Below are positions 8,701 through 27,020 of a DNA stretch of 32,000 bases, one piece after another. Position 1 is the first letter of the stretch. Each line of letters starts with the position of its first letter. Source of the DNA: Dickeya dadantii NCPPB 898 (GTDB lineage Bacteria > Pseudomonadota > Gammaproteobacteria > Enterobacterales > Enterobacteriaceae); contig NZ_CM001976.1 of assembly GCF_000406145.1 (NCBI RefSeq), positions 1,765,117 to 1,797,116 of the forward strand, given 5' to 3'. The notes beneath the pieces were generated by a model that was not told the origin of the DNA, ran no database searches, and saw nothing but the letters and a program-made list of their open reading frames with translations. The position numbers and the translations under genes are program-made.

Positions 8701-11700
8701 GCTGGCGGTGGAACATGTTGGTATTGAGGATGATTTCTTTCTGCTTGGTGGTCATTCGCTAAAAGCCATGACTCTGATTGGCGAGATTAACAAAACACTG
8801 CACGTCAAACTGTCAATCAACGATATTTTCGCTAATACGCAAGTTAAAGCCCTGGCTGCGCTTATCCGCAATTGCTCACCCAGTGAGCAGATAGTCATTG
8901 TACCGGTAAGTGACAAGAGCAGTTATCCCGCCTCATTTGCACAACGGCGATTGTATATGATCGAACAGTTAAATGGGGTGGGAACGAGTTACAACATGGC
9001 GGGTGCGTTGTTAGTAGAAGGCGTACTGGATCATACGCGGCTGGAGGAGGCTTTCCTCCAGCTTATTCAGCAACATGAAAGTCTGCGGACATCTTTTGCG
9101 ATGGAGAGCGACGTCATTGTACAGCGAATACATCCAGACGTTCCTTTTTCCATCAGTACGGATGAGGTGATAGACGCGCAGGTTGATGATTTGATCACCC
9201 GTTTTGTCAGACCATTCGATTTAGGCCATGCACCGCTATTGCGTGTGGGGGTGGCGCGCGTGGGGGACGAGCGGCATATCTTACTGTTCGATATGCATCA
9301 CATTATTTCAGACGGCGTGTCGATAGCGCTGTTGATCGATGATTTTGTCCGTTTGTATGCCGGAGAGCAGACGCTGCCACGGAGCATCCACTATAAGGAT
9401 TTCTCTGCCTGGCAGCATCAGTGGCTGTCTAGTCCGGCGTCTAGTGCAGAAGAGCAGTACTGGCTAGAGACCTTTGCTGATCAGGCTCCGGTTCTGAATC
9501 TGATGACTGACTATCCACGACCGCCCGTGCTGAATTTTGACGGTAGCAGCATCGAACTTAGTGCAGATCCGGTGTTAAGTGGAAAACTTCGCACTCTGGC
9601 GCGGGAAACCGGGGCGACGCTCTATATGGTGATGTTGGCTGCGTACAACGTAATGCTGGCGAAGTACTCTGGGCAACACGACATTGTAGTCGGGTCACCC
9701 GTTGCCTGTCGCCCGCTTGCCGAGACACAAAATGTCATCGGCATGTTTGTCAATACGCTGGCGATGCGTAATACACCACACCATGACCAGACTTTCAGGA
9801 CGTTTCTGCATAGTGTTAAACAGAATGCGGTGCAGGCATTTGAGCATCAAAACTATCCATTTGAGCAGTTGGTGGAAAAACTGGATATTCCACGTGATGC
9901 CAGCCGGAATCCGTTGTTTGATACGCTGTTTGCTCTACAGAATACAGAATCTGGTCGATGGGATATTGCAGGGTTACGTTTTACTCCGTGGCCGCTGGCA
10001 TCTGTAACTGCCAAGTTTGATTTAGCTATTACCGCTTATGATGCAGATGAACAGATCAGGTTTAACTGGAGTTATCGTACTTGCTTATTTAAGCAGGCAA
10101 CCATTGAGCAGATGGCCGGGCATTTTATTAATATCCTGCAACAGGTGACAGAAAATGTGGACGTCAGGATTGAAGATGTGAATCTGCTCTCCGCTACGGA
10201 ACAACATCAGCTTCTTTGTGAGTTTAACAACACGACAACTGACTACCCGGACAATAAACTTTTCCATACTTTATTTGAGCAGCAGGCAGCGCGTTTGCCA
10301 GACTGTCCTGCGGTAGTCTTGGGTAACAAGCAACTCACCTATCGCCAATTGAATAACAAAGCGAATCGTCTGGCCGCCTTATTACGGGCGAAAGGAGTTA
10401 GAGCCAACCAGCCGGTGGGAATTATGGCAGTGCGCTCTATCGAGCTCATTGTGGGTATTCTTGGAATATTTAAGTCCGGTGGTGTTTATTTACCACTTGA
10501 CCCTCAATTACCCACAGAGCGTATTGCCTACATGTTAGAGGACAGCCATAGTGAGTTTCTCCTTATGGTCGGACCAGGCAATAATGCTATTCCCTTTCAT
10601 GGTAACGTGATTGATCTTACCGCATTTCCCGAAGAGGAAATATACTGCCATGAACTAGAAAATAGCGTACAACCAACTGATTTAGCTTATATTATATACA
10701 CTTCTGGTTCGACAGGAAAACCCAAAGGAGTAATGATAGAACACCGATCATTCGTGAACTTTCTTTATGCAATGTATGACGGTTACGCGGGTGATATTGG
10801 TCCTGGAGACAGAGGATTAACCCTATCCTCTATCAGCTTTGATGTGACAATTTTTGAACTTTTCCTTCCATTAGCGTTTGGTGCCTGTCTGGTGCTGTAT
10901 GAAAATACGGATTTTGTGGAGCCAAGAGAGCTTGCTCAGACCCTTATTGAGCAGGCTATCACACTGACTTACATACCTCCTTCATTGTTGAATGAGGTAA
11001 ATGATGAGCTTCACCAAAGCAAGGTACCGCTGGTGCTCAATAAACTGATGGTTGCTGTTGAGCCCTTCAAAGCACAGGCACTGGATAATTATCTGTCCCT
11101 CAATCCTGCGATGACCATCCTCAATGGTTATGGACCGACTGAGTCAACCGTGCTGGCCACTGTATTTCCTTATCAGCGCGGGACGGTAGACGGGAAATAT
11201 GTCCCGATTGGGAAACCTTTGCCCAATATACGCATTATGATCTTGAATGGCGATCGCCTGGTTCCTGTAGGTGTCGTGGGGGAACTCTGTATTGTCGGAG
11301 AGGGATTATCCCGGGGATACCTGAATCTTCCTGATGTGACAGCAGAAAAATTCATCGCCAGCCCCTATACCAGTGAGCGTATGTACCGGACAGGCGATCT
11401 GGCACGCTGGCTGCCAGACGGCAATATTGAATTTATTGGCCGGGCGGATTTCCAAGTGAAAATGCGAGGTTACCGTATTGAGCTGGGTGAAATAGAATCT
11501 AATCTGCAACTTCTTGCCGGCATTAAAAAAGTCGTGGTGCTTGCTTGGAAGGATGACTTTCGCGGCATGTATTTGGCTGCTTATCTCAGCTACAAGGATG
11601 GCCAGCAGCCCTATAGTGTGGAGACATTGCGTGAACACCTGGCGCAGAGTTTGCCATCCTATATGATCCCTCTGCACTTTATGGTCATGGTGCAAATTCC

Positions 11701-13459
11701 TGTGACGACGAATGGGAAGATTGACCGCAAAAAACTGCCGCGTCCAACGGATCTAACGCAGGAGAGCACACAACCAAATCAGTTGTTCAATGATACTGAA
11801 GCGCAGCTGGCATCGTTGTGGTCTGAGTTATTAGGGAAAGTCCCTTGCGTGGGAGATGATTTCTTTGAGTCTGGTGGTCATTCGTTACTGGTAATGCGTC
11901 TGGCAACGCGTATTCAGGAGCGTTTCAACATCGCGCTTTCAGCACGCGATATTTTTTCCCACCCACAGTTTTCCGCCCTTGCCCGTCTGATAAGTTTGCA
12001 GGTTGAAACCGCCAGGCAAACGGTGGTGATGTCGCCAATACGTAAGGCCAATGCCGGACGTGTCGAATTTCCACTTTCTTTCCCCCAGCAGCGGCTCTGG
12101 TTCTTGGATCAATTGAACTTGGGCGGTAGTCAATACAACATGACAGGCGCATGGACATTGCAGGGAAAAGTTGATCCTCATCGTCTGGAGGATGCTTTCA
12201 ATCAGGTCGTAAGTCGACATGCCATCCTGCGTACCCGATTTGTGACTCGTGATGGCATACCTTACCAATATGTGGAAGAAAACAGCGGTATTGAGTTTCG
12301 CTATATTGAAAAATTGAGCGATGAAGACATCCATTCACATATTCAGCAGGAAGTGAGAAGCGGATTTGATCTGGCTCATGGCTCTCTGTTGCGCGTACTA
12401 CTGTTGAATAAGAAGCAGAAAGATGAAGAATATTTATTAGTTGTCAATATGCACCATATTATTTCGGACGGCTGGTCAATGAATATTCTGGTGAATGAAG
12501 TTAGCGCATTTTGGCAACAGGGACACCAGACTAAGCCGGTATTGTCATCATTACCGCTGCCGCTGATTCAATATGGTGATTATGCGCTCTGGCAGCACGA
12601 ATGTGTTGAACAGGGCGATTTCTCTGAGCAACTGGCCTACTGGCAACAACATTTGGGCGGTCATAAAGGTATTTTAGCCTTACCGGCAGATAAACCCCGT
12701 TCTTCCTCCGGTGTGGGGCGAGCGGGAGAAATTCCCCTTCGCCTTAACCGTAACGAATTGAGTCAATTGCAGCAACTGGCTAAGCACCATGATTGTACTC
12801 TCTATATCGTGCTACTGGCGGCTTATGCGGTAGTACTACAACGTTACTCAGGTGACAATGATATTGTCATAGGTACTGCTGTTGCTAACCGACGGCGTCG
12901 GGAGCTTGAAGGGTTGATCGGTTTCTTCGTCAATACGTTGGGGTTGCGCGTTGATCTGTCCGAAGACATGCCGTTATCCAGCTATTTGCAGCAGGTTAAA
13001 AAAGTCGTGCTTGATGGTTTTGCTAACGAAGATGTGCCGTTTGATATGGTACTCGAACGCATCACCCCCCCACGTTTGCCCGGTATTAACCCGTTATTCC
13101 AATCAATGTTTATTTTGCAGACCGCCTCACCAGCAACGGTTTCTCTTGACGGTCTTGACATTACTCCTATGCATTTACCGCTGGAGGAGTCCAAGTTTGA
13201 CTTGTTTCTCAATCTCGAAGAGGTGCAAGGGGAACTTGTGGGCCAGCTCATCTTCAATCGGGACATTTTTCATCCGAACCGCATTCATAAGCAAGCCGAG
13301 TACTTCACTGCTTTATTGGCATCGTGGGTGAAAGAGCCTAACAGAACACTTTCTCAACTGAGTGCGTCTATGCCAACAGCGCGCCAGATAAAACCGGTGC
13401 TTTCACCACAGGATATTCGCGGTCTTCTGGATAAATTGGCCCGAGAAGGGAGCAAATAA
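5696..13459 (+). CDS. NRPS, domain order C-A-T-C-A-T-C (two complete modules plus a trailing C domain)
   Basis: Core motifs: HHIAVDL 6116-6136; A3 YTSGSTGRPKG 7574-7606; T GGHS (Ser codon 8756-8758); HHIISDG 9296-9316; A3 YTSGSTGKPKG 10697-10729; T GGHS (Ser 11882-11884); HHIISDGWS from 12452. By-eye alignment to GrsA numbering gives specificity codes A1 = DVWHVSLVDK (Ser-like; EntF is DVWHFSLVDK) and A2 = DVFYMAGVLK (no code I recognise). Alternative starts are ATG 5708 and ATG 5723. The gene overlaps the 3' end of the exporter. Confidence 0.95.
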   Translation: MVITMSNKSMEPASLSYGQRALWFQHYANNKTPFNHLSFAAKILSGKDPARLYKALNYLFHQYDSLRMKYVEHDGDIFQQVVHDIDLPLVEIDATALDNSELLANIADAADEPYDLSSGILMKAKLYHCLNGELVLFLGFHHIAVDLWSMSHFIKELGKAFACQHPEEPLWQERLNNYIEFINYQSSVMQGSKGEALLNYWRTELGQDIPVLQLPEDKLRPVNKSYHAASIRFELPEKLEEELRTFAKKQGVSLYPVLLAIYNVLLHKYSAQTDIVVGSPCAGRSRAHFRETFGFFVNILVNRQRVEPTMPFRALVAEINQRTAKHLRKQDYPHAALHQKIALQHDRSRSPFYDVEFVYDHPRFIEDIAPFIQGWNGARLELGELVFESLAFEKRWLERDLQLFIAQGRDKLYCTLSYNQDLFFTQTAQRFVRHFINLLSAAIREPDSTIGSLDCLSSQEREQILQQWNQTKRSYPDVGWGHDWLQRQARETPYRTALSFAGHQLTYQQLDQRIDRLAAVLSARGIMAESMVPVFMHRSVDMVTAIHAIMRAGGAYVPIDPDLPVERIKWMLDEVSANLVLTQKALLRQWEATGIEDTVLVVDDDNLPVVPINSVTLTADNAAYMIYTSGSTGRPKGVVNTHGGIRNRILWMQEALQLTSDDRVLQKTPYSFDVSVWEFLWPFLAGAQLVIARPGGHKDAEYLIDLIITEAVTTLHFVPSMLQLFLSNPRCGECTSLKRVVCSGEVLPVELVRQFYRQFSDCTLYNLYGPTEAAVDVSWWQCRPTDDLAIVPIGYPIANTQLYILDENLNPVPIGVAGELYIAGCQLARGYWNQPTLTAERFIANPFAGRAEQRMYKTGDIARYRDNGEIEYLGRSDFQVKIRGFRIELGEIEARLKVHHQIKDAVVMTYGEGDEKFLCAWLVADTELSLIALREYLSKSLPEYMVPSHFSRLNQLPLSPNGKLDRKALPTPEPDNSLYARQQYVAPTDDIESRLVDIFRHLLAVEHVGIEDDFFLLGGHSLKAMTLIGEINKTLHVKLSINDIFANTQVKALAALIRNCSPSEQIVIVPVSDKSSYPASFAQRRLYMIEQLNGVGTSYNMAGALLVEGVLDHTRLEEAFLQLIQQHESLRTSFAMESDVIVQRIHPDVPFSISTDEVIDAQVDDLITRFVRPFDLGHAPLLRVGVARVGDERHILLFDMHHIISDGVSIALLIDDFVRLYAGEQTLPRSIHYKDFSAWQHQWLSSPASSAEEQYWLETFADQAPVLNLMTDYPRPPVLNFDGSSIELSADPVLSGKLRTLARETGATLYMVMLAAYNVMLAKYSGQHDIVVGSPVACRPLAETQNVIGMFVNTLAMRNTPHHDQTFRTFLHSVKQNAVQAFEHQNYPFEQLVEKLDIPRDASRNPLFDTLFALQNTESGRWDIAGLRFTPWPLASVTAKFDLAITAYDADEQIRFNWSYRTCLFKQATIEQMAGHFINILQQVTENVDVRIEDVNLLSATEQHQLLCEFNNTTTDYPDNKLFHTLFEQQAARLPDCPAVVLGNKQLTYRQLNNKANRLAALLRAKGVRANQPVGIMAVRSIELIVGILGIFKSGGVYLPLDPQLPTERIAYMLEDSHSEFLLMVGPGNNAIPFHGNVIDLTAFPEEEIYCHELENSVQPTDLAYIIYTSGSTGKPKGVMIEHRSFVNFLYAMYDGYAGDIGPGDRGLTLSSISFDVTIFELFLPLAFGACLVLYENTDFVEPRELAQTLIEQAITLTYIPPSLLNEVNDELHQSKVPLVLNKLMVAVEPFKAQALDNYLSLNPAMTILNGYGPTESTVLATVFPYQRGTVDGKYVPIGKPLPNIRIMILNGDRLVPVGVVGELCIVGEGLSRGYLNLPDVTAEKFIASPYTSERMYRTGDLARWLPDGNIEFIGRADFQVKMRGYRIELGEIESNLQLLAGIKKVVVLAWKDDFRGMYLAAYLSYKDGQQPYSVETLREHLAQSLPSYMIPLHFMVMVQIPVTTNGKIDRKKLPRPTDLTQESTQPNQLFNDTEAQLASLWSELLGKVPCVGDDFFESGGHSLLVMRLATRIQERFNIALSARDIFSHPQFSALARLISLQVETARQTVVMSPIRKANAGRVEFPLSFPQQRLWFLDQLNLGGSQYNMTGAWTLQGKVDPHRLEDAFNQVVSRHAILRTRFVTRDGIPYQYVEENSGIEFRYIEKLSDEDIHSHIQQEVRSGFDLAHGSLLRVLLLNKKQKDEEYLLVVNMHHIISDGWSMNILVNEVSAFWQQGHQTKPVLSSLPLPLIQYGDYALWQHECVEQGDFSEQLAYWQQHLGGHKGILALPADKPRSSSGVGRAGEIPLRLNRNELSQLQQLAKHHDCTLYIVLLAAYAVVLQRYSGDNDIVIGTAVANRRRRELEGLIGFFVNTLGLRVDLSEDMPLSSYLQQVKKVVLDGFANEDVPFDMVLERITPPRLPGINPLFQSMFILQTASPATVSLDGLDITPMHLPLEESKFDLFLNLEEVQGELVGQLIFNRDIFHPNRIHKQAEYFTALLASWVKEPNRTLSQLSASMPTARQIKPVLSPQDIRGLLDKLAREGSK

Positions 13460-13461
13460 CA

Positions 13462-14439
13462 ATGGATATCAAGTCAGAGCAACAGGCACAAGCCTACCAG
13501 GCCATTATTACGTTTTTAGCCGAAAAATTATCGATAGCGGAATCTGATGTGCCGGACGCACTCATTGAGGAGACGTATGTCGAATTGATGCGTGAACAGG
13601 AGGCGATTTCTGCACCACAGACGATATCTGAGCAGTTCGAATTGCAGGCACTGGCACATCCGAATCACAGGGCTGTGCTATGGGGGCAAGAGGTAGCCAG
13701 CTACCACGAATTGTATGTAGGCATGCAGTATGTCGCCAGCATGTTATGGAAGCAAGGTGTTATACCTGGCACCCAGGTCGGTGTTTATGTGAGCAATCCT
13801 GTCCTGCGTTTATTGACGATTCTGGGAGTGTTAAGAGCGGGGGGCATCGCGGTCATTGCCTCTCCTGACAATGCGGTGGTAACAGCTAAGGCGGTGTTTT
13901 CCCGCAGTAGTGTGTCCTGTGTGCTCTGTGAACCTTCTTCCGTGCAGGTATTTACTGCGAATGTGTATCCTCTTATCACGGTCGAACGACAGCAATATGC
14001 TATGCCGGTTGAGCTTCCGCCTGAAATTGCGGCCAAAGAGGGTGGAGTGATGACTTTTTTATGTGGTCATGAGGTGTTCCTCACCCAGGCTTTGCTGGCA
14101 GACAGGATCTCATCTTGGAAAGCAACGCTGATTCTGCATGAATACGACGTCTACGCTCTGTGGCAGTTTGAGCAAGCAGATAGTTGGCTGGATCACGCAC
14201 TTTGGGTGCTAACCAGCGGAGCGACACTAGCATTACCTGTGCAGATCCCAGGAGAGCAGGTGTCGCCTGATGTACTTGCCGATATTCAGGCCGATGTGGC
14301 TTATTTTGATGCACCACTGCTAGCGTCATTTGCTGGGAGCGGATGGCGGATACCCGATAGACTTCGTGTGATTTTGTCTGGCAGCGAGCCGCTTCATCGT
14401 ACTTCCATCGCCTCATTTTTTTGCCGAACAGACCACTGA
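13462..14439 (+). CDS. N-terminal part of a megasynthetase (docking-like N-terminus plus the front half of a degenerate adenylation domain); separated from the next ORF by a 1-nt frame offset
   Basis: A1-like SYHELYVGMQYVASML and A2-like LRAGGIAVIASP are present. The A3 P-loop (TSGSTGxPKG) is replaced by GGVMTFLCGHEVF. SD GGGAG lies ~9 nt before ATG 13462. The ORF ends TDH* at 14439, just after a T7 run (14416-14422). Confidence 0.7.
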   Translation: MDIKSEQQAQAYQAIITFLAEKLSIAESDVPDALIEETYVELMREQEAISAPQTISEQFELQALAHPNHRAVLWGQEVASYHELYVGMQYVASMLWKQGVIPGTQVGVYVSNPVLRLLTILGVLRAGGIAVIASPDNAVVTAKAVFSRSSVSCVLCEPSSVQVFTANVYPLITVERQQYAMPVELPPEIAAKEGGVMTFLCGHEVFLTQALLADRISSWKATLILHEYDVYALWQFEQADSWLDHALWVLTSGATLALPVQIPGEQVSPDVLADIQADVAYFDAPLLASFAGSGWRIPDRLRVILSGSEPLHRTSIASFFCRTDH

Positions 14440-14473
14440 GTTCTATTTCTGTTTTGCGCCTGCGGGGCTGCCA

Positions 14474-17400
14474 TTGAATCTGATGCCGACGCGAACCAGC
14501 CTCAGACGGGGCCGTTTATCGCTGGGTACGCCGCGAATTGGGCGTGCTGCGTTGCTGGATCCACAGGGGCATGAAGTTGAAGAGGAAATGGTAGGTGAGA
14601 TGCACTTGTGGGACGGTTGTCAGTTAGTCGCTACGGGGTTAAAAGCGGAGTTATCTGCTGAAGGAGAATGGCTCTGGGTTGAAAATCAGGCGAAGAACCT
14701 GATGATTACCGGCCAGCATATCTGCGATACCAACCAAATTATCGCCGCGCTGGTGACCTGCCACGAAGTGGCAGATGCGGTGGTATTAATTACACAAATG
14801 CCGAACGGATGCGCTGAGCCTGTTGCCTATGTTGTGCTTGCTGATGATCGTGCCAGTACAGAAGAGTTGGGCCATAAGTTGTGCTTCGAGATGCCTTACG
14901 GACAACCGATGCTCAATATTATCGCTGTCACCGCTATCCCGTTAAACAATGGCTATGTTGATGACAGTGCTTTATTGAAAATGCCGTTGATTTCGCCAGC
15001 AAGGATCCGTGTTATAGAGGCGCATATCGGTGAGCAAGCTGGAGTTGCGTCTGTGGGCAGCATTGTGGTGCCCCATCAGGATGAAAGTGGGCATTTGGCG
15101 CTGGAGGATGTTTTTCCTAAGGAGACAATTAATTACGCGCAGGCTGTAGTGGGACAGCGTGAGAAATATGGCAATGCGAATACGCAGGTACCAGCCACAA
15201 CTGACATGACTACGGGGAATAAACCGCTTGCTTGGCAGCGTGGTGGTGAACTGGTTATCCCGCAAACATGCCCACGTGATTTGTCAACAGCGCTACAACA
15301 AACCGCTCACCGTTATCCTGATAAAGGGCTGACATTTGTTGATGCCAACGGGACGAACACGTTTCTTAGCTACCCGGATCTGGTATGCAGAGCGAAAAAT
15401 ATTCTTGGTGGCTTGCAACGGTACGGATTTCACCCGGGTGCGCGCGTCATTTTGCAGATCGATAACCTGGCAGATCATTTCTCCGCCTTTTGGGCCTGCA
15501 TGTTAGGGGGGATTATCCCCGCAACGGTAGCGATTGCCCCTTCTTATCAACAAGAAAATGGCGTTGTGGCAAAGGTCTGGCACACTTGGACATTGCTGGA
15601 AAAACCACTCATCCTGACAACGGAACATTTGCAGCCTGAGTTGCAACAGATGTGTGCCCTTTATCCCATGGAGGGGGGGACAATCCTGACAGTTGAGGCT
15701 CTGGAATCGCTACAACAGGCTGGCGAAATCCACAAGGTACAGCCTGGTGATTTGGCATTCTTTCAACTCACATCAGGAAGTACCGGTAAACCCAAATGTA
15801 TTCAGGAGATACATGAAAAGATTATTCGCCATATCAATGCGGGGAAACAGTACAATGGATATGATGCGGACGACATTAGCTTAAATTGGCTGCATCTTGA
15901 TCATGTTGTTCCTATCCTGACATCACATCTGAAAGATGTGTATCTTGGCTGCTCACAGCTTCATGTTGACACTGATTATGTGCTTGACGATCCCTTACGC
16001 TGGTTGGACCTCATAGAAAAACACCGGGTTACTCACAGTTGGTCACCGAACTTTGGTTTCCGGTTAGTCAGCGAAGCACTGAAACCGAACCGTAACCGAC
16101 AATGGAAACTGGATTCACTCCGGTTTCTGATGAATGCAGGAGAACAGGTAACCTTACCCGTTATCAGTGATTTTCTGGATGCAACGCGCCCGTTCGGTGT
16201 CACGGAACAAGTGATGCAACCTGCATTTGGTATGGCGGAAGTGTGTACCTGCATGACGTTCTGCAACAATTTTGATCGTGATATTAATGCGGTACGCGTA
16301 GTGAAAGCTTCCTTGCGCGGCGATCTTGTTTTTACCCGCGAAGTTCACCGTAGTGATGTGCTGACTTTTGTCAGTTCGGGACACATTGTTAACGGTGTGG
16401 AGATGCGTATTGTCAATGAACACAATGTCTGTTTACCTGAAGCCGTGATCGGCCGTTTTCAGATCCGCGGCGGTGTGGTGACACCGGGTTATCTGAATAA
16501 TTCACAGGCGAATACGGAATCGTTTGTTGGTGACGGGTGGTTCAATACCGGTGACCTTGGCTTTATTTTGAATGGTGAGCTTTTTATTACCGGCCGGGAA
16601 AAAGAGCTTATCATCATTTATGGTACGAATTATTACTGCCATGAAATAGAAGAAATAGTCGGCCGTAACAATGGTGTTTTACCAACCTTTACAGCAGCCA
16701 CCAGTATACAGGATGAGGTAATCGGCACTGAGTCGCTGGTTATTTTCTTCGTTTCTGAAACGGATGACGTTGCTCAACAGATGCAGATCATCCAGGCGAT
16801 ACGCACCTCTGTCACTGCAACGATGGGGATTTCTCCACGTGTTGTTTTACCGTTGGAAAAAAGCACCTTTCTGAAAACGACGAGTGGCAAGATCCAGCGA
16901 GACATAATGAGAAATGCCTATCTAAACGGACTGTATGATGAGCAGGTAAAACGGATAGATATGGCATTGGGCAATGATAACACCCTGCCGGATCAGTTCC
17001 TTTGCAGAAAATGGATAACACGTCAGCGCTCCGCTAATGTTGCCCGCTCCGTGAAAATGGCGATAGTTTTCGGTACAGCAGAGGGGGTGGGTGGCAATCT
17101 GGTATCACTTATCCATGCTGAAGGGGGCGTTGCCGTTCTTGTTGAGGCTGGGAGGCGCTTTGAAAAACTCAGCAATCTTCATTATGTGATTGATGCGGGC
17201 AGGGTTGAAGATTTTACTTCTGTATTTTCTGATCTGAGTGAGTCGCCGACACATCTGATTCAGGCATGGCCTTTCGATATTGCTTTGGAGCGAGATACTG
17301 GGGTATATGGCCTGATTCGCCTGTTGAATGCGGTAGATCGCAGTGCAATGTCGTTACGGAGTCTGGCGCTCATTACTCATCATGCCTGGCCAGTTTTAGC

Positions 17401-20400
17401 CTCCGATCGCGCGGTTCCTGAAAACGCCGCGTTTGCCGGTATACTGCAAACACTGGCGTTGGAACGTCCTGATTTGCGCTGTTTTCATGTTGATTTTGAT
17501 ACCGTCGCCACGCCGTCTGTGGTGGCGAAAGCCTTTTGGCAGGAACTTACTGGTGAGGCGTTTGCGCGCGAGGTCGCGTACCGGAATGGTGAACGGAAAG
17601 TTCCGTTGCTGACAGCCATTGATATGCAGCAGGGACAGTTACCATTACCAATAAGAGAGAAGGGGCATTATCTGGTCACCGGGGGAACGGGTGGTATCGG
17701 TTCGCTTGTCACTCAGATGCTAGTCGAGCAGTTTAACGCGAAAGTTCTGGTGGTTTCCCGCTCAGCCAGTGCTTCGGATCCTGGAAGGATGACTCTACGA
17801 CCGGAAAAGAGGGGCAATTTGCTATTTGCCTCAGTAGAGGTTGCCGATACGGAGGCTCTGCAAGCGGCAGTTAGTAAAGCAGAAGCGCACTGGGGCGCTC
17901 TGATAACCGGTGTATTCCATTTTGCTGGTGTGATGGATGAACGGTTGCTCGAAGATGAAACTCCAGAAACGTTAGCAAGGGTTTTTGCCAGCAAGGTGTC
18001 GGGTGCCCAATCGCTACTGGAGATTTTCTCCACGCGTGCCAATTCCTTTCTGGTGCTCTCTTCTTCCGTCAATGGCACCTTTGGCGGCTTTGGGGCAGGG
18101 GCTTATTCTGCCGCCAATGCCTGGCTTGATGCTTTACCGTCAGCGGCAGCGTCTGCCAATATCAGTATTTACTCAGTCGCTTGGTCACAATGGCGAAATA
18201 TTGGTATTAGTCATGGTTCACCATTCAACAAACTTGCGGAAGCAAAAGGTTTTCAGTCTCTCGGTGCAAAACAAGGGCTGGTGTCATTACTGGCAGTGCT
18301 TTGCCGTGAGCCAGGTACAACGCTCGTTGGGCTGAATCCAGCAAAACGTTATGTGGCTAGCCGGGTCAGTAACGTTATGCAGCCGGCTGAACGGCTGCGC
18401 TGTTACTATACGGGTATAGCGCAACCTGCTGCGGTTATGGCTGCATTGCCGCGTAATGATTTGTCTGATGCTTTCGGTGCTATCTCCTGTTTTGATCTCA
18501 ATTGGCTGGAAACGATGCCCATAGACAGTACAGGAACACCTGATAAAGCGTCATTACGGCGGATAGCAGTGAGTAAAGGCGCATTATTGGCGACTTTTCA
18601 GGAGCCAGAATCGCCGACAGAGAAGGCGCTAGCCAGCATTTGGGAAGAGTTGCTCAACACGAATAAAACGAGTGTGCTGGATAATTTTTTTGAACAGGGC
18701 GGACACTCTCTGTTGGCGACACAGTTAATTTCGCGGATTCGACGCTATTTTGGCATCGAAGTGCGGATTGATAGTCTGTTTGCTAATCCAACACTGCGGG
18801 AATTGGCTAGCCAGATTGATGCGGCGCGCACGAGTGTGATTAGCACGGACAGCACGGCTGAATTGCACCGCTACCAGCGTAAACACCTTGTCCCTCTGTC
18901 GTTTGCCCAAGAGCGTCTATGGTTCCTTAATCAATTAAATCCAGGAAATCCATTTTACAATATTCAGCAACTGATTCGTATTACAGGCCACCTTGATGCA
19001 ACTGATGTTGAGATGGCATTTAAAAAACTGGCACAACGTCAGGCGGTATTGCGTACTACCTTTCAGGTTATCGATGACTCGCCGGTACAAGTGGTCAATG
19101 ATATCAACCAGCAAGGTATGTTTGATTTTCAGTATATTACCTACGATGGAGAAAATGGCAGAGTAAAATGGCGGGAGACTGTTGCTCACGAGTCACAATA
19201 CGGATTCGATTTAACGCATGGGCCAGTGTTCAGAGTTCGGTTATTACGCATCACCAGCAATGAGCACTTTCTACTGTTTACTGTGCATCATATTGCAGCG
19301 GATGCCTGGTCTGTTTCCATATTGATCCGTGAATTTATGGCGTATTTTCAGGAAATAGAATTGCCGACATTGCCAATAGAGTACACGGATTTTTCGATCT
19401 GGCAGCGAGAATGGTTGGTAGGTAAGGAGTATGACCAGCAGTTACAGTACTGGATGCAGCATTTAGATGGCTATAGTGGTGTGCTGGAAATTCCATCCGA
19501 CTTTACACGTCCCGGTATGCCGAGTTATCAGGGCGAAAAATTACAATTCAGACTATCGAGCTCACAGCATCAAAAACTTGGTGAACTGAGTCAGCAGTGG
19601 GGGGTAACACCTCACATGATCTTATTTTCGCTGTTTAATGTGCTATTAAAAAAATATTCAGGTGCCGATGATATTGTTGTTGGTATGCCGATAGCTAACC
19701 GGAACCGGGCTGAAGTTGAGCAACTGATTGGTTTCTTTGTTAATACTCTGGCGATCCGCAACAACTTGTCCTCTGATCCGACATTTGAACACTTTGTGGC
19801 TGATGTGAGAACGGGTTTGCTGGAAGCCTACGCCTATCAGGATATGCCATTCGAGAAGTTGGTTAATGAATTGCATCTGGAACGCCAGTTGGATCGACAG
19901 CCATTGTGTCAGGTGATGTTCGTGATGCAGAACGTGCCAGCGCAAGCCATAGATCTAGACGGCTTTGAATTTGAGTTGATGGACTCGCCCCACACAATTG
20001 CCAAATATGACCTGACACTAAGCTTTATCGCGGTGAACGGAGAATATCACGGGGCGCTGGAATACAGTACTGACCTGTTCAGCCATGAATCAATGCAACG
20101 AATGATCAATGTCTGGAGCCTGATGCTGACGAGTGCATTGGATAATCCACTGCAACAGCTCTCGGCGTTGATCGCTCAGCAACATGGTGGGGATATTCCT
20201 GCCTGGCCATTCGCCGCATCCATTTCCTTACCAAGCGTCACGGATGACGACTATATCCGTGCATTGTTGCTGTCGCAATCTGCCATTCAGAGGGTAACAC
20301 CGCTGTCTCCTGTTCAGCGGGATTTATATCTAGATTATCTGCATAACCCTACTAGTGGGCAATATGGGCTGACATACTCTGTTGATCTGGGAACACATAT

Positions 20401-23400
20401 TGATACGTCCCGATGGCAAGCCATCGTCCAGCAGGTTACGGAAGAAATGCCGGTTTTGAAGAGCCGCTACTTCACGCTAAACGGGTCATTTTGGCAGTGT
20501 GTCGATAGTGAGTTGTTGTTAGACTACCGTATCATCGTAGGGGACGACCTCAGTAATGTCCTGGCGCATAACGCTCAGCAGCCATTTGATTTATTTGATT
20601 ATGCGGTACGCCATCTGCTCTTTCGGCACCAGACTACGGGAAACTATACTGCGATTATTACCTGTCATCATATTGTTCTGGATGCCCATTCAGCACACCG
20701 TTTCTTCCAGCGTATGGCTGCTGTTTATCAGGGCGAGTTGGCTACCAGTCAGCAGATATCACCGCATGCGGCATTTCACGATGCCGTAGTCAGACGTATT
20801 GCACGTTTCGATCATGAGGAGGTGACCAGGTACTGGACGCAAGCGACCAGAGAGGTAGAACCGTTGGTGCAGGCTCGCTCTTCGCGTAATGAGGTCAGAC
20901 GACCACGTCTGGAAACGACGTGTTTCAACCGCATGCATGCTGAACATATTAAGCGGCATTGTGCTGAACTTGGCGTAGGGCTGGCAACGTATTTTCATGC
21001 GTTGCTTGGTATCTTACTGGCACGATTCTACCAACCGGAAAGTGATTTTATTCTGTTTAATGTCTTGGCCGGGCGTGAAAAACATGAGTTAGACGTTGCG
21101 GGTTGTTTATATCAAGTTCAGCCGCAGGTGTTTGCCCACTCACTTTTTTCCTCGCCTGAAAGCAGCTTTACGGCAATAGCATTGCAACTTTCACAGATGC
21201 ATCGTGCGACAAGAGCATACAAAGACATCTCTGTTTTTACACAGAGACAGATTCTGGGTCAGGAAGGCATCCGTTTCTATACGAATTTCTATAACTTTGG
21301 CGAGCTCCACCGTGGTGAACATCATGCACACTTGGCCGTGCATGAGTCATATGAAGCTAGTGAAGTGCATTTCATTATTGAAGAATCGTCTGTGGGTATT
21401 GATATCCGTCTCGCCTTTGATGAGGGAATGTGGCAGTCAGCACGATTGCTGGAACGAATGGCATATCTGTCTGAACAAGTGCTTGCCGGTGATAAGGTGC
21501 TAGGTGATTTTGAGATAGCACTTGCTGATGAGGTTAACGTAATAACCCATCACTGGAACCAGGATTTAGTACCTCAGCAATGCGATATAGCCAGTCTGGT
21601 CGATTTATTTTCGCAACAAGCACAACAGAGACCGCAGGCTATAGCCGTTCGTCATAATGGTGAGGAAATGAGCTATGGTGAGCTGGAGTATCGGGCAAAC
21701 AAACTCGCATTCTATCTGCGTAGTAGAGGAACGACGGCGAATCGTTTGGTCGGCTTGTTACTTAATCCCTCGTTTAACACAATTATTGGTTTGCTGGGGA
21801 TCCTCAAGGCAGGCGGAGCTTATTTGCCGATAGACTCCCGATATCCGAGTGAACGGGTTCATTTCATGTTGCAGGATGCTGGGGTTGAAGTCTTGGTAAC
21901 CGAAAGCGTGTTGCAAGAGCAATCCCCGATACCTGCTGGTATTAGTGTGATTACACTGGATACCGATTGGGATAACATTGAAAGGGAAGAGGGAATGCAT
22001 GATAGCCTACAGATTGCCCCTGACCAACTGGCGTATGTCATTTATACATCGGGGTCCACTGGGGTGCCTAAAGGTGTCATGCTCACTCATGCTAATGTCG
22101 TCAGACTATTTAGCCAAACTGCAGAATGGTTCCATTTTAATGAGCAGGATGTCTGGACACTGTTTCACTCTGTTGCCTTTGACTTCTCGGTTTGGGAAAT
22201 ATGGGGGGCACTGTTGCATGGTGGAACGCTAGTAGTAGTAGACCCATCCATCACGCGTTCTCCAAATGATTTTTTTTCATTGCTGAGGAAGGAAAAAGTC
22301 ACCGTACTTAATCAAACACCTTCTGCTTTTGCACAATTAGTCCAGGCTGACCTAAAACAACCTGTAGCCAATGAGCTTGCCCTACGTTATGTCATTTTTG
22401 GTGGAGAAGCGCTGAATTACACCACTCTGCAACCTTGGGTTGATCGTTATGGATACAACAAACCGCAACTAATCAACATGTATGGTATCACCGAGACAAC
22501 AGTACATGTGACCTGGAAGTTGATTACCGCCTCGGATCTTGTTCAAGGGACGGTGAGTAATATTGGCAGACCTATTCCTGATTTGAAGTTATATCTTTTC
22601 GATCAATTTGGTAAATTGACCCCACCTGGTGCGATCGGAGAGCTATATATTGGTGGTCCCGGTCTTGCAAAGGGATATTTGAATCAGCCAGAGTTAACCG
22701 CCACACGGTTTAGCGAAAATCTTGTTTTGCAGGAACGATTGTACAAAACCGGTGATATCGGACGCTGGTTACCTGCTGGAGAAATAGAATATCTCGGGCG
22801 GTCTGATCAGCAGGTGAAAATTCGTGGCTTCCGTATGGAACTGGGTGAGGTTGAAAGTCAATTTCGTAAAATTACAGGGATAGATGATGTCGCAGTGGTG
22901 GCAAGAAAGAATTGCGATAGTGAAGTAGAATTAGTCGCTTACCTTGTTACAGCAGTTTCTATCCCACGTGCTGAAATAAAACAGCAATTAGAGAAGACTC
23001 TACCTTATTATATGATTCCTTCTGCTTTAGTCATGATGAAAACGCTGCCGCTTACCGTGAATGGAAAACTGGATCGCAGAGCGTTACCTGAACCAGATGA
23101 GTCGGCACGTCGAGCATCTTCGCACTTTGTTCCGCCGCAAAATGATATCCAGGAATTAATGGCACAGGCGTGGTGCGAAGTGTTATCGGTTGAAAAGGTA
23201 GGAATAGATGATAATTTTTATGAATTAGGCGGGCATTCGCTGAAACTCGTGGGCCTTCAGACAAGGCTTAATTTGAAATTGAGGGGAAGAACTCCCCCCG
23301 TTGAAATAATAAATTTATTCCAGTATCCCACTATTCGAGGATTATCCGATTTTCTCGCAAAAGAAAAATCAGTAATCACCGAGCCTAGACAGGTAAATCA

Positions 23401-23470
23401 GGTGGAAAATAGAGCTGATAAAAGAAGAAAACTGACTGAAAAACGGCGAAGTTACGTCAATAGGACCTAG
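14474..23470 (+). CDS. Hybrid NRPS/PKS-like megasynthetase: (rest of pseudo-A)-FAAL-like acyl-AMP ligase-KR-T-C-C'-A(Thr)-T; probably continuous with 13462-14439
   Basis: This frame is open from 14372, and TTG 14474 is only the ORF-track start. The pseudo-A remainder lacks the A7 Asp (VATGL) and the A10 Lys (LNNGYVDD). FAAL-like ligase: TSGSTGKPK 15770-15796, FGMAEV, NTGDLGF..GREKELIIIYGTNYYCHEIEE, TSGKIQR. PKS-type KR: TGGTGGIG 17678-17701 and YSAAN 18104-18118. T: GGHS, Ser 18707-18709. C: HHIAADA 19286-19306. C': HHIVLDA 20666-20686. A: YTSGSTGVPKG 22043-22075, code DFWNIGMVHK (the canonical Thr code). T: GGHS, Ser 23237-23239. There is no TE or R domain. Confidence 0.9.
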   Translation: MNLMPTRTSLRRGRLSLGTPRIGRAALLDPQGHEVEEEMVGEMHLWDGCQLVATGLKAELSAEGEWLWVENQAKNLMITGQHICDTNQIIAALVTCHEVADAVVLITQMPNGCAEPVAYVVLADDRASTEELGHKLCFEMPYGQPMLNIIAVTAIPLNNGYVDDSALLKMPLISPARIRVIEAHIGEQAGVASVGSIVVPHQDESGHLALEDVFPKETINYAQAVVGQREKYGNANTQVPATTDMTTGNKPLAWQRGGELVIPQTCPRDLSTALQQTAHRYPDKGLTFVDANGTNTFLSYPDLVCRAKNILGGLQRYGFHPGARVILQIDNLADHFSAFWACMLGGIIPATVAIAPSYQQENGVVAKVWHTWTLLEKPLILTTEHLQPELQQMCALYPMEGGTILTVEALESLQQAGEIHKVQPGDLAFFQLTSGSTGKPKCIQEIHEKIIRHINAGKQYNGYDADDISLNWLHLDHVVPILTSHLKDVYLGCSQLHVDTDYVLDDPLRWLDLIEKHRVTHSWSPNFGFRLVSEALKPNRNRQWKLDSLRFLMNAGEQVTLPVISDFLDATRPFGVTEQVMQPAFGMAEVCTCMTFCNNFDRDINAVRVVKASLRGDLVFTREVHRSDVLTFVSSGHIVNGVEMRIVNEHNVCLPEAVIGRFQIRGGVVTPGYLNNSQANTESFVGDGWFNTGDLGFILNGELFITGREKELIIIYGTNYYCHEIEEIVGRNNGVLPTFTAATSIQDEVIGTESLVIFFVSETDDVAQQMQIIQAIRTSVTATMGISPRVVLPLEKSTFLKTTSGKIQRDIMRNAYLNGLYDEQVKRIDMALGNDNTLPDQFLCRKWITRQRSANVARSVKMAIVFGTAEGVGGNLVSLIHAEGGVAVLVEAGRRFEKLSNLHYVIDAGRVEDFTSVFSDLSESPTHLIQAWPFDIALERDTGVYGLIRLLNAVDRSAMSLRSLALITHHAWPVLASDRAVPENAAFAGILQTLALERPDLRCFHVDFDTVATPSVVAKAFWQELTGEAFAREVAYRNGERKVPLLTAIDMQQGQLPLPIREKGHYLVTGGTGGIGSLVTQMLVEQFNAKVLVVSRSASASDPGRMTLRPEKRGNLLFASVEVADTEALQAAVSKAEAHWGALITGVFHFAGVMDERLLEDETPETLARVFASKVSGAQSLLEIFSTRANSFLVLSSSVNGTFGGFGAGAYSAANAWLDALPSAAASANISIYSVAWSQWRNIGISHGSPFNKLAEAKGFQSLGAKQGLVSLLAVLCREPGTTLVGLNPAKRYVASRVSNVMQPAERLRCYYTGIAQPAAVMAALPRNDLSDAFGAISCFDLNWLETMPIDSTGTPDKASLRRIAVSKGALLATFQEPESPTEKALASIWEELLNTNKTSVLDNFFEQGGHSLLATQLISRIRRYFGIEVRIDSLFANPTLRELASQIDAARTSVISTDSTAELHRYQRKHLVPLSFAQERLWFLNQLNPGNPFYNIQQLIRITGHLDATDVEMAFKKLAQRQAVLRTTFQVIDDSPVQVVNDINQQGMFDFQYITYDGENGRVKWRETVAHESQYGFDLTHGPVFRVRLLRITSNEHFLLFTVHHIAADAWSVSILIREFMAYFQEIELPTLPIEYTDFSIWQREWLVGKEYDQQLQYWMQHLDGYSGVLEIPSDFTRPGMPSYQGEKLQFRLSSSQHQKLGELSQQWGVTPHMILFSLFNVLLKKYSGADDIVVGMPIANRNRAEVEQLIGFFVNTLAIRNNLSSDPTFEHFVADVRTGLLEAYAYQDMPFEKLVNELHLERQLDRQPLCQVMFVMQNVPAQAIDLDGFEFELMDSPHTIAKYDLTLSFIAVNGEYHGALEYSTDLFSHESMQRMINVWSLMLTSALDNPLQQLSALIAQQHGGDIPAWPFAASISLPSVTDDDYIRALLLSQSAIQRVTPLSPVQRDLYLDYLHNPTSGQYGLTYSVDLGTHIDTSRWQAIVQQVTEEMPVLKSRYFTLNGSFWQCVDSELLLDYRIIVGDDLSNVLAHNAQQPFDLFDYAVRHLLFRHQTTGNYTAIITCHHIVLDAHSAHRFFQRMAAVYQGELATSQQISPHAAFHDAVVRRIARFDHEEVTRYWTQATREVEPLVQARSSRNEVRRPRLETTCFNRMHAEHIKRHCAELGVGLATYFHALLGILLARFYQPESDFILFNVLAGREKHELDVAGCLYQVQPQVFAHSLFSSPESSFTAIALQLSQMHRATRAYKDISVFTQRQILGQEGIRFYTNFYNFGELHRGEHHAHLAVHESYEASEVHFIIEESSVGIDIRLAFDEGMWQSARLLERMAYLSEQVLAGDKVLGDFEIALADEVNVITHHWNQDLVPQQCDIASLVDLFSQQAQQRPQAIAVRHNGEEMSYGELEYRANKLAFYLRSRGTTANRLVGLLLNPSFNTIIGLLGILKAGGAYLPIDSRYPSERVHFMLQDAGVEVLVTESVLQEQSPIPAGISVITLDTDWDNIEREEGMHDSLQIAPDQLAYVIYTSGSTGVPKGVMLTHANVVRLFSQTAEWFHFNEQDVWTLFHSVAFDFSVWEIWGALLHGGTLVVVDPSITRSPNDFFSLLRKEKVTVLNQTPSAFAQLVQADLKQPVANELALRYVIFGGEALNYTTLQPWVDRYGYNKPQLINMYGITETTVHVTWKLITASDLVQGTVSNIGRPIPDLKLYLFDQFGKLTPPGAIGELYIGGPGLAKGYLNQPELTATRFSENLVLQERLYKTGDIGRWLPAGEIEYLGRSDQQVKIRGFRMELGEVESQFRKITGIDDVAVVARKNCDSEVELVAYLVTAVSIPRAEIKQQLEKTLPYYMIPSALVMMKTLPLTVNGKLDRRALPEPDESARRASSHFVPPQNDIQELMAQAWCEVLSVEKVGIDDNFYELGGHSLKLVGLQTRLNLKLRGRTPPVEIINLFQYPTIRGLSDFLAKEKSVITEPRQVNQVENRADKRRKLTEKRRSYVNRT

Positions 23471-23657: not shown

Positions 23658-23671
23658 AATTTATTGTGTGG
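23658..23671. repeat. Copy 2 of the 14-bp direct repeat AATTTATTGTGTGG, spanning the GTG start of the M28 gene
   Basis: Exact match to 23547-23560. It contains GTG 23666-23668. Confidence 0.8.
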
Positions 23672-25972
23672 AAAAGAAGTGGCTGTACACAAGCGACAAT
23701 TATACAACGATTCAGTCAGGTTGGTTTTTTAATCGTATTGCCTATGGTGGTATTATTAACACTATGGCAGGCAAAACCACCTGAGCCTAAATTAGCTAAC
23801 GCACCTGCGAACGTTTTTTCTGCAGAACGAGCACTAGCTATAATAAAAGATATCGCCAGGGAACCACGCCCAACAGGTTCGAAAGAAAATGAGCGAGTAC
23901 GGCAATATCTTATTACCAGACTAAAAAGTATGGGGCTGACACCAGAAACACAATCGGGTATTGCCTATTCCGATGGTGCTTTCACCAGTGTCGCTGTAGT
24001 AACAAATGTGGTCGTGCGTCTAAAAGGAACGGTTAGTCATAAAGCGGTACTTCTGATGGCGCATTATGACTCTGTTGAAACGGGGCCTGGAGCGAGTGAT
24101 GATGGTGCCGGAGTGGCGACAGAATTGGAAACGCTGCGGGCATTAATGCAGGGACCTGCGTTAAAAAATGACGTTATCTTTCTTTTTACTGATGGGGAAG
24201 AACCTGGCAGTCTCGGTGCTCAGCTTTTCTGGCATCATCATCTCTGGCGCGATGATGTTGGTGTTGTATTAAACTTCGAGGCTCGTGGAGCGAGTGGTGC
24301 TTCGCTAATGTTTCAAACTAGCGAACAAAATGGATGGCTTATAAAACAATTCGCCCAGGCTGGTCTTCATCCGGTCAGCAATTCGCTGATGGGGGATCTA
24401 TATCGCTATATGCCAAATGGCACAGATCTTTCTGTCTCGAATGAGAAAAAAGTGTCAGGAATGAACTTTGCCTTTGGGGGAAACTGGCCGATTTATCACA
24501 CTAGCAGGGATCGTGTTGAAAATATTGATCTGTCTTCTCTGCAACATCATGGTGATAATGCGCTTAATTTAAGTAGTAAATTAGGTAACACAGACCTTTC
24601 GCAAACGAAAGATACGGATGCTTCATATTTTAATGCATTCGGATTGTTGATCCATTATCCACAATCTTGGGTGAAATGGATTACGAGTGGTATAATATTA
24701 CTAGCCGTCATTTTATTAATTCGCGGTGTAGAGCAACATCGTTTGTCTCTAAAAAAGATAGTACAGGCGACATTTATCCAGCTATGCGGAATCATTATTA
24801 TCCCAGCTCTAGTCCTTGGTCTTTGGTTGGTAATTGAGGCGTTATGGGCAGGGAAAATGTATGCCCCCATGGGAGGGCTGTATGATAATCTACTATATGA
24901 GGGTGGATTCGTCACTCTGACGGTTGCGCTGACAGTTGTGATGCTAGGGCGTGGTCAACAGCGCTTTGGTCTACTTAATATGTTGAGTGGTGGCCTGCTT
25001 ATTTGGTCTCTGCTTATTTTGTGTGTGGCATATTTACTCCCCGGTGGGAGCGATTTCTTTAGCTGGTCGTTACTGTCCAGCTTACTCGTATTTGGTTGTG
25101 CCCTGAACAGTAGGCAACCACAAACTGTACTTAGCCACCCGGTATCAATGCTGGTTGTGACATTACCAGTCGTTTTTTTTCTGACTTCAATTCTCAACCT
25201 ATTTTTTATTTTTCTCTCTGCAACGATTAATGCCTGTGCGATGGCTCTGGTCGTATTAGCTTTGCAATTGCTGCTGGCCCCATTATCTGTGTTGATGGCC
25301 CCCCGATTTTGGCTGTTGCCTGGGATTGCCATGCTGATAACCGTTATATTATTTAGTTGTGCTTTTTTCCGAGGACAGCCAGATAGCGACAGACCAAAAG
25401 GGAATAATATCTCTTATTACTTGAATGCTGACACAGGGGAGGCGAAATGGGTCAGTTGGAGCGAGGTTACAGATGAATATCTTGAACAGTTTCTGCCACA
25501 TCCGCAAAGAGATATGGCTACTCAGGTATTGCCCTTTGCTTTTGCAGATAAAAAGCTACTAACGGGGAATGCAACGGCTGTGCCTTTATCCGCAGCAGAA
25601 GTGCAGCTCGATAACCAACAGGTTGATGCTGACGGTATACGTAAGATCCGCGTGGTTGTGACGTCAAAACGTAAACTCAGCAGATATCTGCTCCAGATTA
25701 ATAATCCCAATATTGACCATATAACTTTAAATGGTTTCATTTTAGAAAATAATAGTCACGTCAATCCATGGTGCATTGAGTATCTCGCACCAGGAGAGTA
25801 CCCATTGGTAATATCTCTTGGTTCAATGAGGAAAACAAAATTGATCGTATCTGAAGTGATCGATGGTTTACCTGTCATCCCGAGCAAAATGTATATGCCA
25901 AGAACAGAATTATTTATTCCTCAGCGATTCTTTGATCACTCAACAATAGTGAGCAAAACATTCGAATTTTAA
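23666..25972 (+). CDS. Polytopic membrane M28-family zinc (amino)peptidase with ERMP1/Fxna-like architecture
   Basis: N-terminal anchor helix (VGFLIVLPMVVLLTLW). M28 ligand motif series: HYD (24062-24070), DDGAG, TDGEEPG, NFEARG, YHTSRD. About 8-9 hydrophobic helices follow (aa ~330-570), then a ~190-aa C-terminal soluble domain. GTG start with AAGG ~9 nt upstream. Confidence 0.8.
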   Translation: MWKRSGCTQATIIQRFSQVGFLIVLPMVVLLTLWQAKPPEPKLANAPANVFSAERALAIIKDIAREPRPTGSKENERVRQYLITRLKSMGLTPETQSGIAYSDGAFTSVAVVTNVVVRLKGTVSHKAVLLMAHYDSVETGPGASDDGAGVATELETLRALMQGPALKNDVIFLFTDGEEPGSLGAQLFWHHHLWRDDVGVVLNFEARGASGASLMFQTSEQNGWLIKQFAQAGLHPVSNSLMGDLYRYMPNGTDLSVSNEKKVSGMNFAFGGNWPIYHTSRDRVENIDLSSLQHHGDNALNLSSKLGNTDLSQTKDTDASYFNAFGLLIHYPQSWVKWITSGIILLAVILLIRGVEQHRLSLKKIVQATFIQLCGIIIIPALVLGLWLVIEALWAGKMYAPMGGLYDNLLYEGGFVTLTVALTVVMLGRGQQRFGLLNMLSGGLLIWSLLILCVAYLLPGGSDFFSWSLLSSLLVFGCALNSRQPQTVLSHPVSMLVVTLPVVFFLTSILNLFFIFLSATINACAMALVVLALQLLLAPLSVLMAPRFWLLPGIAMLITVILFSCAFFRGQPDSDRPKGNNISYYLNADTGEAKWVSWSEVTDEYLEQFLPHPQRDMATQVLPFAFADKKLLTGNATAVPLSAAEVQLDNQQVDADGIRKIRVVVTSKRKLSRYLLQINNPNIDHITLNGFILENNSHVNPWCIEYLAPGEYPLVISLGSMRKTKLIVSEVIDGLPVIPSKMYMPRTELFIPQRFFDHSTIVSKTFEF

Positions 25973-26983: not shown

Positions 26984-27020
26984 AGTAGTAACATGATCTT
27001 AATTGACTGGAGAGAAGTAG

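Follow-up and report, generated by a model that had tools for sequence, protein, structure and literature searches.

A putative keto-acid elongation module, with a dead adenylation domain and its condensation domain on a separate protein, in an orphan assembly line of Dickeya dadantii

Introduction

What does a ligase with the features of a fatty-acyl-AMP ligase (FAAL) do in the middle of a peptide assembly line? The question is raised by a nonribosomal peptide synthetase (NRPS) locus of Dickeya dadantii NCPPB 898, in a stretch of 32,000 nucleotides (contig NZ_CM001976.1, positions 1,765,117 to 1,797,116; hereafter the window). There, such a ligase, a ketoreductase (KR) of the polyketide synthase (PKS) type and a thiolation (T) domain follow one another at 15270-18830, within an open reading frame (ORF) of 2998 aa. 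The original prediction for this tridomain left two readings side by side, a mid-chain hydroxy-acid module joined by an ester bond through the preceding condensation (C) domain, or an acyl starter module in a cluster whose gene order is not colinear with assembly. We conclude that 15270-18830 is very probably the core of a five-domain NRPS elongation module in which the ligase is a 2-keto acid AMP ligase (KAL). We write this module C / Ax-KAL-KR-T, where Ax is a dead adenylation (A) domain and the slash a break between two proteins. Of the two readings, the mid-chain 2-hydroxy-acid module with an ester-forming upstream C domain is, to judge from the sequence, the best-supported explanation, and the starter is not favoured.

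Five-domain modules of the order C-Ax-KAL-KR-T have recently been defined in Dol15D-M2 (dolastatin 15), PyrG (pyridomycin), HcaB, HctF-M1 and HapC, with 125 homologues reported, and in PyrG, Dol15D-M2, HctF and HapC this order is that of elongation modules (PMC13643306). The module type is already known, from these proteins and from the structure of StsA, and what distinguishes the Dickeya locus is minor: an enterobacterial host, C and Ax distributed over two proteins, and a complete, well-preserved fossil A domain. The scaffold role proposed for Ax could be tested on this locus, as could the engineering of ester bonds into peptides. The locus also draws attention to an orphan depsipeptide cluster, present in the type strain of an important plant pathogen.

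The ligase is FAAL-like and closest to keto-acid ligases

The motifs quoted in the original prediction were all recovered at their positions in the + strand ORF 14474-23470 (Table 1). From the ligase on, Pfam places AMP-binding, KR structural subdomain, KR, PP-binding, C, a second C, A and T domains in this order. With the end of the preceding protein and the start of the same gene included, the order is C / Ax-KAL-KR-T-C; the motifs of KAL, KR and T are intact and those of Ax are dead.

Table 1. Features of the assembly line, in window positions
Feature	Position	Strand	Evidence or remark
C-like domain	16-1254	+	Runs off the window start; bases 1-15 without a stop
Type II thioesterase (240 aa), then fused ABC exporter	Between the 16-1254 ORF and the NRPS	+	
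NRPS C-A-T-C-A-T-C, 2583 aa	5696/5708-13459	+	
C domain, last of this NRPS	12065-13366	+	Pfam PF00668, E 5.8e-100; HHIISD motif intact
325-aa ORF	13462-14439	+	
Ax, full-length (A1-A10) NRPS-type A domain, catalytically dead	13462-15097	+	Weak AMP-binding matches; alignment with the cluster's three A domains
T7 homopolymer, frameshift site	14416-14422	+	Ax-KAL-KR-T-C-C-A-T gene broken here into ORFs 13462-14439 and 14474-23470
2998-aa ORF	14474-23470	+	
KAL, FAAL-like ANL domain	15239-16933	+	A3, A5, A7, A8 and A10 intact
Ligase motif FQLTSGSTGKPK	15761-15796	+	
Ligase motif FGMAEV	16226-16243	+	
Ligase motif TGDLGF	16547-16564	+	
Ligase motif GREKELIIIYGTNYYCHEIEE	16592-16654	+	
Ligase motif TSGKIQR	16880-16900	+	
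KR N-terminal structural subdomain	17063-17500	+	PF21394, E 6.8e-07; NF047870 KR prefix; continuous 6ULW alignment
KR catalytic subdomain	17663-18196	+	PF08659, E 1.9e-37, ORF aa 1064-1241
NADPH motif TGGTGGIG	17678-17701	+	
KR motif YSAAN	18104-18118	+	
KR-to-T segment, A9/A10-like remnant LNWLETMPIDSTGTPDKASL	18260-18598	+	A10 Lys replaced by Thr
NRPS-type T domain, GGHSL	18626-18811	+	PF00550, ORF aa 1385-1446; peptidyl carrier protein (PCP) matches in PDB
Carrier motif GGHS	18698-18709	+	Ser1412 at 18707-18709
Downstream C domain	18884-20167	+	PF00668, E 1.2e-105; HHIAAD motif

That the ligase is FAAL-like and not a canonical NRPS A domain was borne out by its NCBIfam scores. The FAAL-type models PRK07768 (274 bits, cut-off 572) and PRK09192 (245.7 bits, cut-off 600) score far above the amino acid adenylation model TIGR01733 (105 bits, cut-off 317); FAAL_FadD32 reaches 146 bits against a cut-off of 975, and the ligase stays below the cut-off of every one of these models. 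Nor does it group with amino-acid A domains, its identity to the three A domains of the cluster being about 22%. When the ligase alone was compared with the PDB, StsA scored 426 bits (6ULX/6ULW, E ~1e-119 to 1e-126), McyG 410 bits (E ~1e-122), true FAALs about 140 bits (E ~1e-40) and NRPS A domains about 47 bits (E ~1e-11). Beyond the ligase, aa 239-1450 of the ORF align in one piece with the A-KR-T module of StsA (PDB 6ULW, E 7.5e-196).

The A-KR-T modules of known depsipeptide synthetases had been held to use NRPS-type A domains, which would have set the Dickeya ligase apart from them. This premise proved false because the keto-acid ligases of cereulide and cryptophycin synthesis belong to the same FAAL-like clade. 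Characterised keto-acid ligases were recovered by tblastn against plasmids (ces, crp and did loci) and realigned. Over the full length, the Dickeya ligase is identical at 42.7% of positions to DidB from the didemnin cluster of Tistrella, 39.0% to CrpD-M2, 37.4% to CesA1, 36.7% to StsA and 36.1% to CesB1, and all carry the same motifs. The KAL clade has been described as FAAL-like and set apart from canonical NRPS A domains (PMC13643306). For keto-acid modules it is normal, and no exception, that an A-KR-T unit carries FAAL-like motifs, and a false lead is thereby removed.

Keto-acid ligases are marked by a hydrophobic residue (Ile306 in StsA, Val219 in Dol15D) where amino-acid A domains have Asp235, together with a Gly-Met pair in motif A5, which recognises the 2-oxo group (PMC7923214, PMC13643306). 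Both are present here. The residue opposite StsA Ile306, at the Asp235 position, is Val478 (15905-15907, in LDH-V-VPIL), and StsA Gly414-Met415 corresponds to Gly586-Met587 (16229-16234, in PAFGMAEV); the pair occurs in all eight KALs compared.

Could the ligase instead be a true fatty acyl-AMP ligase, or a loader of 3-oxo or other non-2-oxo acids, with the KR acting as it does in a PKS? Its best NCBIfam matches are named long-chain fatty-acid ligase or FAAL, and the score of McyG, which loads phenylpropanoids, comes close to that of StsA. Compared with canonical A domains, the ligase has an insertion of about 25 residues after motif A5, which may correspond to the specific insertion that FAALs carry there. 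FAALs (FadD32 and those of E. coli and Legionella), McyG and CrpA share with the Dickeya ligase the ANL fold, the FAAL-like motif variants, the direct loading of a carrier without CoA and, apparently, an insertion after A5. The family scores, however, lie far under their cut-offs, and PDB FAALs score much lower than StsA. FAALs are also without a coupled KR, a pseudo-Asub or an upstream C and Ax, and in McyG and CrpA, both PKS starters, a ketosynthase (KS) comes next. In the Dickeya module the hydrophobic residue at 235, the Gly-Met pair and a pseudo-Asub remnant, a feature described as peculiar to keto-acid modules, are all present; the module has no KS to make a 3-oxo group, and a fatty acyl group would offer no nucleophile to the upstream C domain. 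We regard a fatty-acid ligase as hardly credible here.

Ketoreductase, pseudo-Asub remnant and carrier

The KR, of the short-chain dehydrogenase/reductase type, has its catalytic residues on alignment with the KRs of CrpD, CesA1 and CesB1: Lys1174, Ser1196-1198, Tyr1211 and Asn1215 in ORF numbering. Both their presence and the place of the ligase outside the amino-acid A domains speak for the original observation. The spacer of some 200 aa described between ligase and KR is not a spacer, being the N-terminal structural subdomain of the KR, with a Beta-ketacyl_N Pfam match at ORF aa 864-1009.

Between KR and T, the remnant MPIDSTGTPDKASL aligns with the A10 and T regions of PvdL and LgrA, and with residues 1100-1307 of 6ULW (E 6.9e-16). 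On this alignment we read it as the C-terminal half of a split pseudo-Asub. According to Alonzo 2020, as presented in PMC7923214, the split pseudo-Asub combines an N-terminal element with a stretch of about 70 residues that separates KR from T, and is specific to keto-acid modules. The N-terminal element is only implied in the Dickeya protein, as the 6ULW alignment begins at chain residue 75 and the tail of Ax gave no significant match to the N-terminal pseudo-Asub piece of StsA.

A complete but dead adenylation domain precedes the ligase

The tridomain itself stands as predicted. The degenerate A domain directly upstream of it had been missed. This Ax spans the 325-aa ORF and runs some 265 residues into the 2998-aa ORF, and is 19-23% identical to the A domains of the cluster over about 490 aligned residues. 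Its P-loop motif A3 is deleted (FLCGHE), A5 reads LMPTRT, A7 reads ATGL next to a 28-aa deletion, A8 is degenerate and the A10 Lys is replaced by Tyr (NGYVDD). In the closest relative (P0001, 66% identity) Ax is degenerate at the same motifs. Identity to this relative is 48-52% in Ax, 68-74% in the KAL and 36% in the linker. Ax appears, on these values, to be constrained, less so than the active ligase, as if catalytic constraint had been lost and the domain were still maintained; such conservation fits the scaffold role proposed for it.

The resemblance to Dol15D-M2 and PyrG is close. It extends to the domain order, to an Ax that keeps A1-A10 with a defective A3, to the hydrophobic residue at 235 and the Gly-Met pair, and to the embedded FAAL-like KAL followed by a PKS-type KR, an A10-like remnant and the PCP. 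The Dickeya module differs in having its C domain on the preceding polypeptide, with short tails at the C / Ax junction, and in the state of Ax, whose A3 is wholly deleted and whose A10 Lys is Tyr; its substrate is probably neither 2-ketoisovalerate (KIV) nor 2-keto-3-methylvalerate (KMV). It occurs in an enterobacterial plant pathogen; the modules described so far come mainly from actinobacteria and cyanobacteria (PMC13643306). StsA, CesA1 and CesB1 align end to end over KAL, KR, pseudo-Asub and T and share the key residues, but of the former A domain they retain no more than some 30 residues at the N-terminus, where Dickeya has the whole Ax. DidB of the proteobacterium Tistrella mobilis, the most similar characterised KAL found, shares the DHVVP.LT.HLKD segment and five of nine variable code positions, and is a single four-domain protein with an Ax-like remnant of only ~250 aa. 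The four-domain form is also that of relatives in metagenome-assembled genomes of a Moraxellaceae and a Blastocatellia member, the former with a short Ax remnant.

The module is probably internal, with its condensation domain on the preceding protein

The preceding C domain invoked in the original prediction exists, at 12065-13366, although it sits on the previous polypeptide, a point that had been overlooked. The stop codon of the upstream NRPS (13457-13459) is followed by an ATG at 13462, 2 nt further on. The five domains are not on one polypeptide here, since the C domain ends the preceding protein. A precedent for such a break is found in cereulide synthetase, where CesA ends in a C domain and CesB begins with a KAL, and by this analogy we consider C / Ax-KAL-KR-T functionally equivalent to the one-polypeptide form. 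Nothing in a normal C-A linker corresponds to the sequences at 13367-13600, which are the C-terminal end of the upstream NRPS (…PVLSPQDIRGLLDKLAREGSK) and the first ~45 residues of the Ax protein (MDIKSEQQAQAYQAIITFLAEKL…); the two tails may be docking elements for the split.

The position of the module bears on the second reading, in which the tridomain would be an acyl or hydroxy-acid starter, assembly would not follow gene order and the upstream C domain would serve otherwise. Most relatives in the databases are stand-alone KAL-KR-T proteins of about 1400 aa, or begin with the tridomain, as in Anabaena (L009) and in StsA and CesA1. The cluster is perhaps not colinear, with a PKS and a C-A-T-C NRPS lying upstream of the type II thioesterase (TE) and ABC genes and the last NRPS ending in T. 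The Dickeya tridomain, in contrast, is not N-terminal, being preceded in the same gene by some 590 aa of a relic elongation-type A domain. The gene starts directly behind a protein that ends in C, further C domains follow downstream, and the same order defines the elongation modules cited above. The module would receive its chain from the C-A(Ser)-T-C-A-T-C protein in both plausible protein orders. A starter is unlikely, and we would call it quite improbable, because the KAL module is internal in both orders.

Proposed function and points that weigh against it

For an elongation module, the chemistry, the ester bond, the scaffold role and the substrate can be proposed from the family. The KAL would adenylate a free 2-oxo acid and load it onto the phosphopantetheine of the T domain, and the PKS-type KR would use NADPH to reduce the 2-oxoacyl thioester to the 2-hydroxyacyl thioester. 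The hydroxyl would then be the nucleophile for the last C domain of the preceding protein, which presumably forms an ester (depsi) bond between the upstream Ser-X peptidyl chain and the 2-hydroxyacyl group on T. From there the next C domain (18884-20167) would hand the depsipeptidyl chain over to the Thr module. Ax and the A10-like remnant, the former lying between C and KAL and the latter between KR and T, would act as scaffold only, as a pseudo-Asub.

Some observations weigh against a working module of this kind. A search for an ester-forming signature, in which the seven C domains of the cluster were compared with the C domains preceding the Did, Ces and Crp KALs, gave no discriminating pattern; we infer ester formation from the module type only, because the upstream C domain looks like the amide-forming C domains of the cluster. 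In the window a frameshift at a T7 homopolymer cuts the first 325 aa of Ax off from the rest. Finally, the Pfam domains of the last NRPS include neither a TE nor an R release domain at its end, which is a T domain.

The frameshift and the missing release domain are also what a module, or perhaps a whole island, in decay would present: a non-functional, horizontally acquired remnant in which the frameshift is real. Insertion sequence (IS) and transposase genes flank the island on both sides, and GC content is about 47% over the cluster and drops to 30% at the right end. The same site, however, has T6 in GenBank CP023467.1 (Dickeya dadantii DSM 18020), where the gene is a single uninterrupted one of 3335 aa, with otherwise identical sequence over the 3 kb compared; P0001 likewise reads continuously through this point. 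The split of the ORF is a one-base homopolymer difference, either a sequencing or assembly difference or a slip, and it falls in the non-catalytic Ax. KAL, KR and T, like the other domains, keep all their catalytic motifs, and the type II TE, the transporter and the presumed precursor genes for 2,3-diaminopropionate are still there. Decay is unlikely, if the least so of the alternatives to an elongation module.

Substrate and stereochemistry

No published KAL specificity codes were found in the cereulide and dolastatin papers, and ten-residue pocket codes were derived from the plasmid-borne ces, crp and did loci. The Dickeya KAL reads VVLSMAATCK. Its nearest neighbour is DidB (VVLAIAETVK; a lactate module by colinearity), and it is unlike the codes for 2-ketoisocaproate (KIC; CesA1 VGVTVGTSGK, StsA IGVTIGASAK, CrpD-M2 VAITLGSSGK) and KIV (CesB1 VGVTVAVSGK), which follow (V/I)G(V/I)T..(S)(G/A); StsA, CesA1 and CesB1 begin VGVT or IGVT, Dickeya VVLS. 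The second Did KAL, in a 2-hydroxyisovalerate (Hiv) module by colinearity, reads VGVSIAESAK. The pocket of the Dickeya enzyme may be smaller, given its bulkier residues at positions 236, 239, 299 and 301. The same or nearly the same code is found in the closest homologues (Moraxellaceae, L047; Rhizonema, L001 and L002; alphaproteobacteria, L035 and L057), which therefore form a conserved specificity subgroup with it.

Pyruvate, reduced to lactate, is our tentative best guess from these codes, with somewhat less than even confidence; another small aliphatic 2-oxo acid is the tentative alternative. Two points weaken the call. The VVP motif occurs as well in the Anabaena loading module of a spumigin-like cluster, and the idea that this motif means pyruvate is weakened by its presence there. 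The assignment of DidB to pyruvate and lactate is one by didemnin colinearity, and reportedly that of Xu et al. 2012; the protein has been described as C-A-KR-T. Around the catalytic Ser and Tyr, the Dickeya KR is nearer to the L-forming KRs of CrpD and CesB1 than to the D-forming KR of CesA1; the product is probably an L-(S)-hydroxy acid, a call of low confidence.

The cluster and its possible product

All large ORFs of the window lie on the + strand. In CP023467, an IS element, a KS-AT-ACP PKS and a C-A-T-C NRPS of 1530 aa precede the window. The ORF at 1-1254 is not free-standing, being the last C-like domain of this upstream NRPS (L080 5416-10008). Its active-site motif is NHTIAAD and not HHxxxD, which makes it a candidate terminal or release C domain. 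L080 is another D. dadantii assembly with the island (CM001982.1, GCA_000406265.1); it differs from window 1-11969 at 35 of 11969 positions, and public assemblies are therefore not identical within the island.

By motif-based reading, the first and second A domains upstream of the KAL module have the codes DVWHVSLVDK and DVFYMAGVLK (the latter in the 8858-11947 region), and the A domain downstream of it DFWNIGMVHK. We take DVWHVSLVDK to be Ser-like and DFWNIGMVHK Thr-like; DVFYMAGVLK was matched to no amino acid. In the 1530-aa NRPS the A domain code is DVWEMNADDK, which presumably resembles the codes for diamino acids of the 2,4-diaminobutyrate (Dab) type. At 26024-27989, a pyridoxal phosphate (PLP) enzyme (PALP) and a protein of the ornithine cyclodeaminase family form a pair like SbnA and SbnB, which suggests a supply of L-2,3-diaminopropionate.

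A protein order NRPS2, NRPS3, PKS, NRPS1 (NRPSs numbered along the cluster) would, as speculation, use all condensing domains except the divergent C-like domain before the Thr-type A domain, and would leave the NHxxxD domain terminal. The odds seem to us even that the cluster makes an undescribed hybrid PKS-NRPS depsipeptide containing likely Ser, an unassigned residue, a lactate-type hydroxy acid, Thr, a malonate extension and probably 2,3-diaminopropionate, and that the module is a natural trans-split variant whose complete fossil A domain is under selection as a scaffold. A literature search for a publication on the Dickeya cluster gave nothing specific.

The domain excepted in that order, at 20288-21560 between the normal C domain and the Thr-type A domain, is a second and very divergent C-like domain (HHIVLD). 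It scores 83 bits with Pfam Condensation, is about 20% identical to the other six C domains and has almost no PDB match, and it may be a modifying (e.g. dehydrating) or otherwise specialised C domain. That the tandem C domains before the Ser and Thr A domains are one repeated special type was rejected, as they share only ~37 bits.

Flanking genes

Directly after the last NRPS gene, 23666-25972 encodes a membrane-anchored M28 peptidase of 768 aa, which could mature the product or confer resistance to it. Beyond the window lie transposase genes, ccdAB and an RHS toxin (L079). The low-GC part (~30%) at 29244-31877 contains a CTD10-like protein and a DUF2326 ABC-type ATPase (PADLOC candidate PDC-M68B, E 2.2e-45), and the pair looks like an ABC-three-component conflict or defence system.

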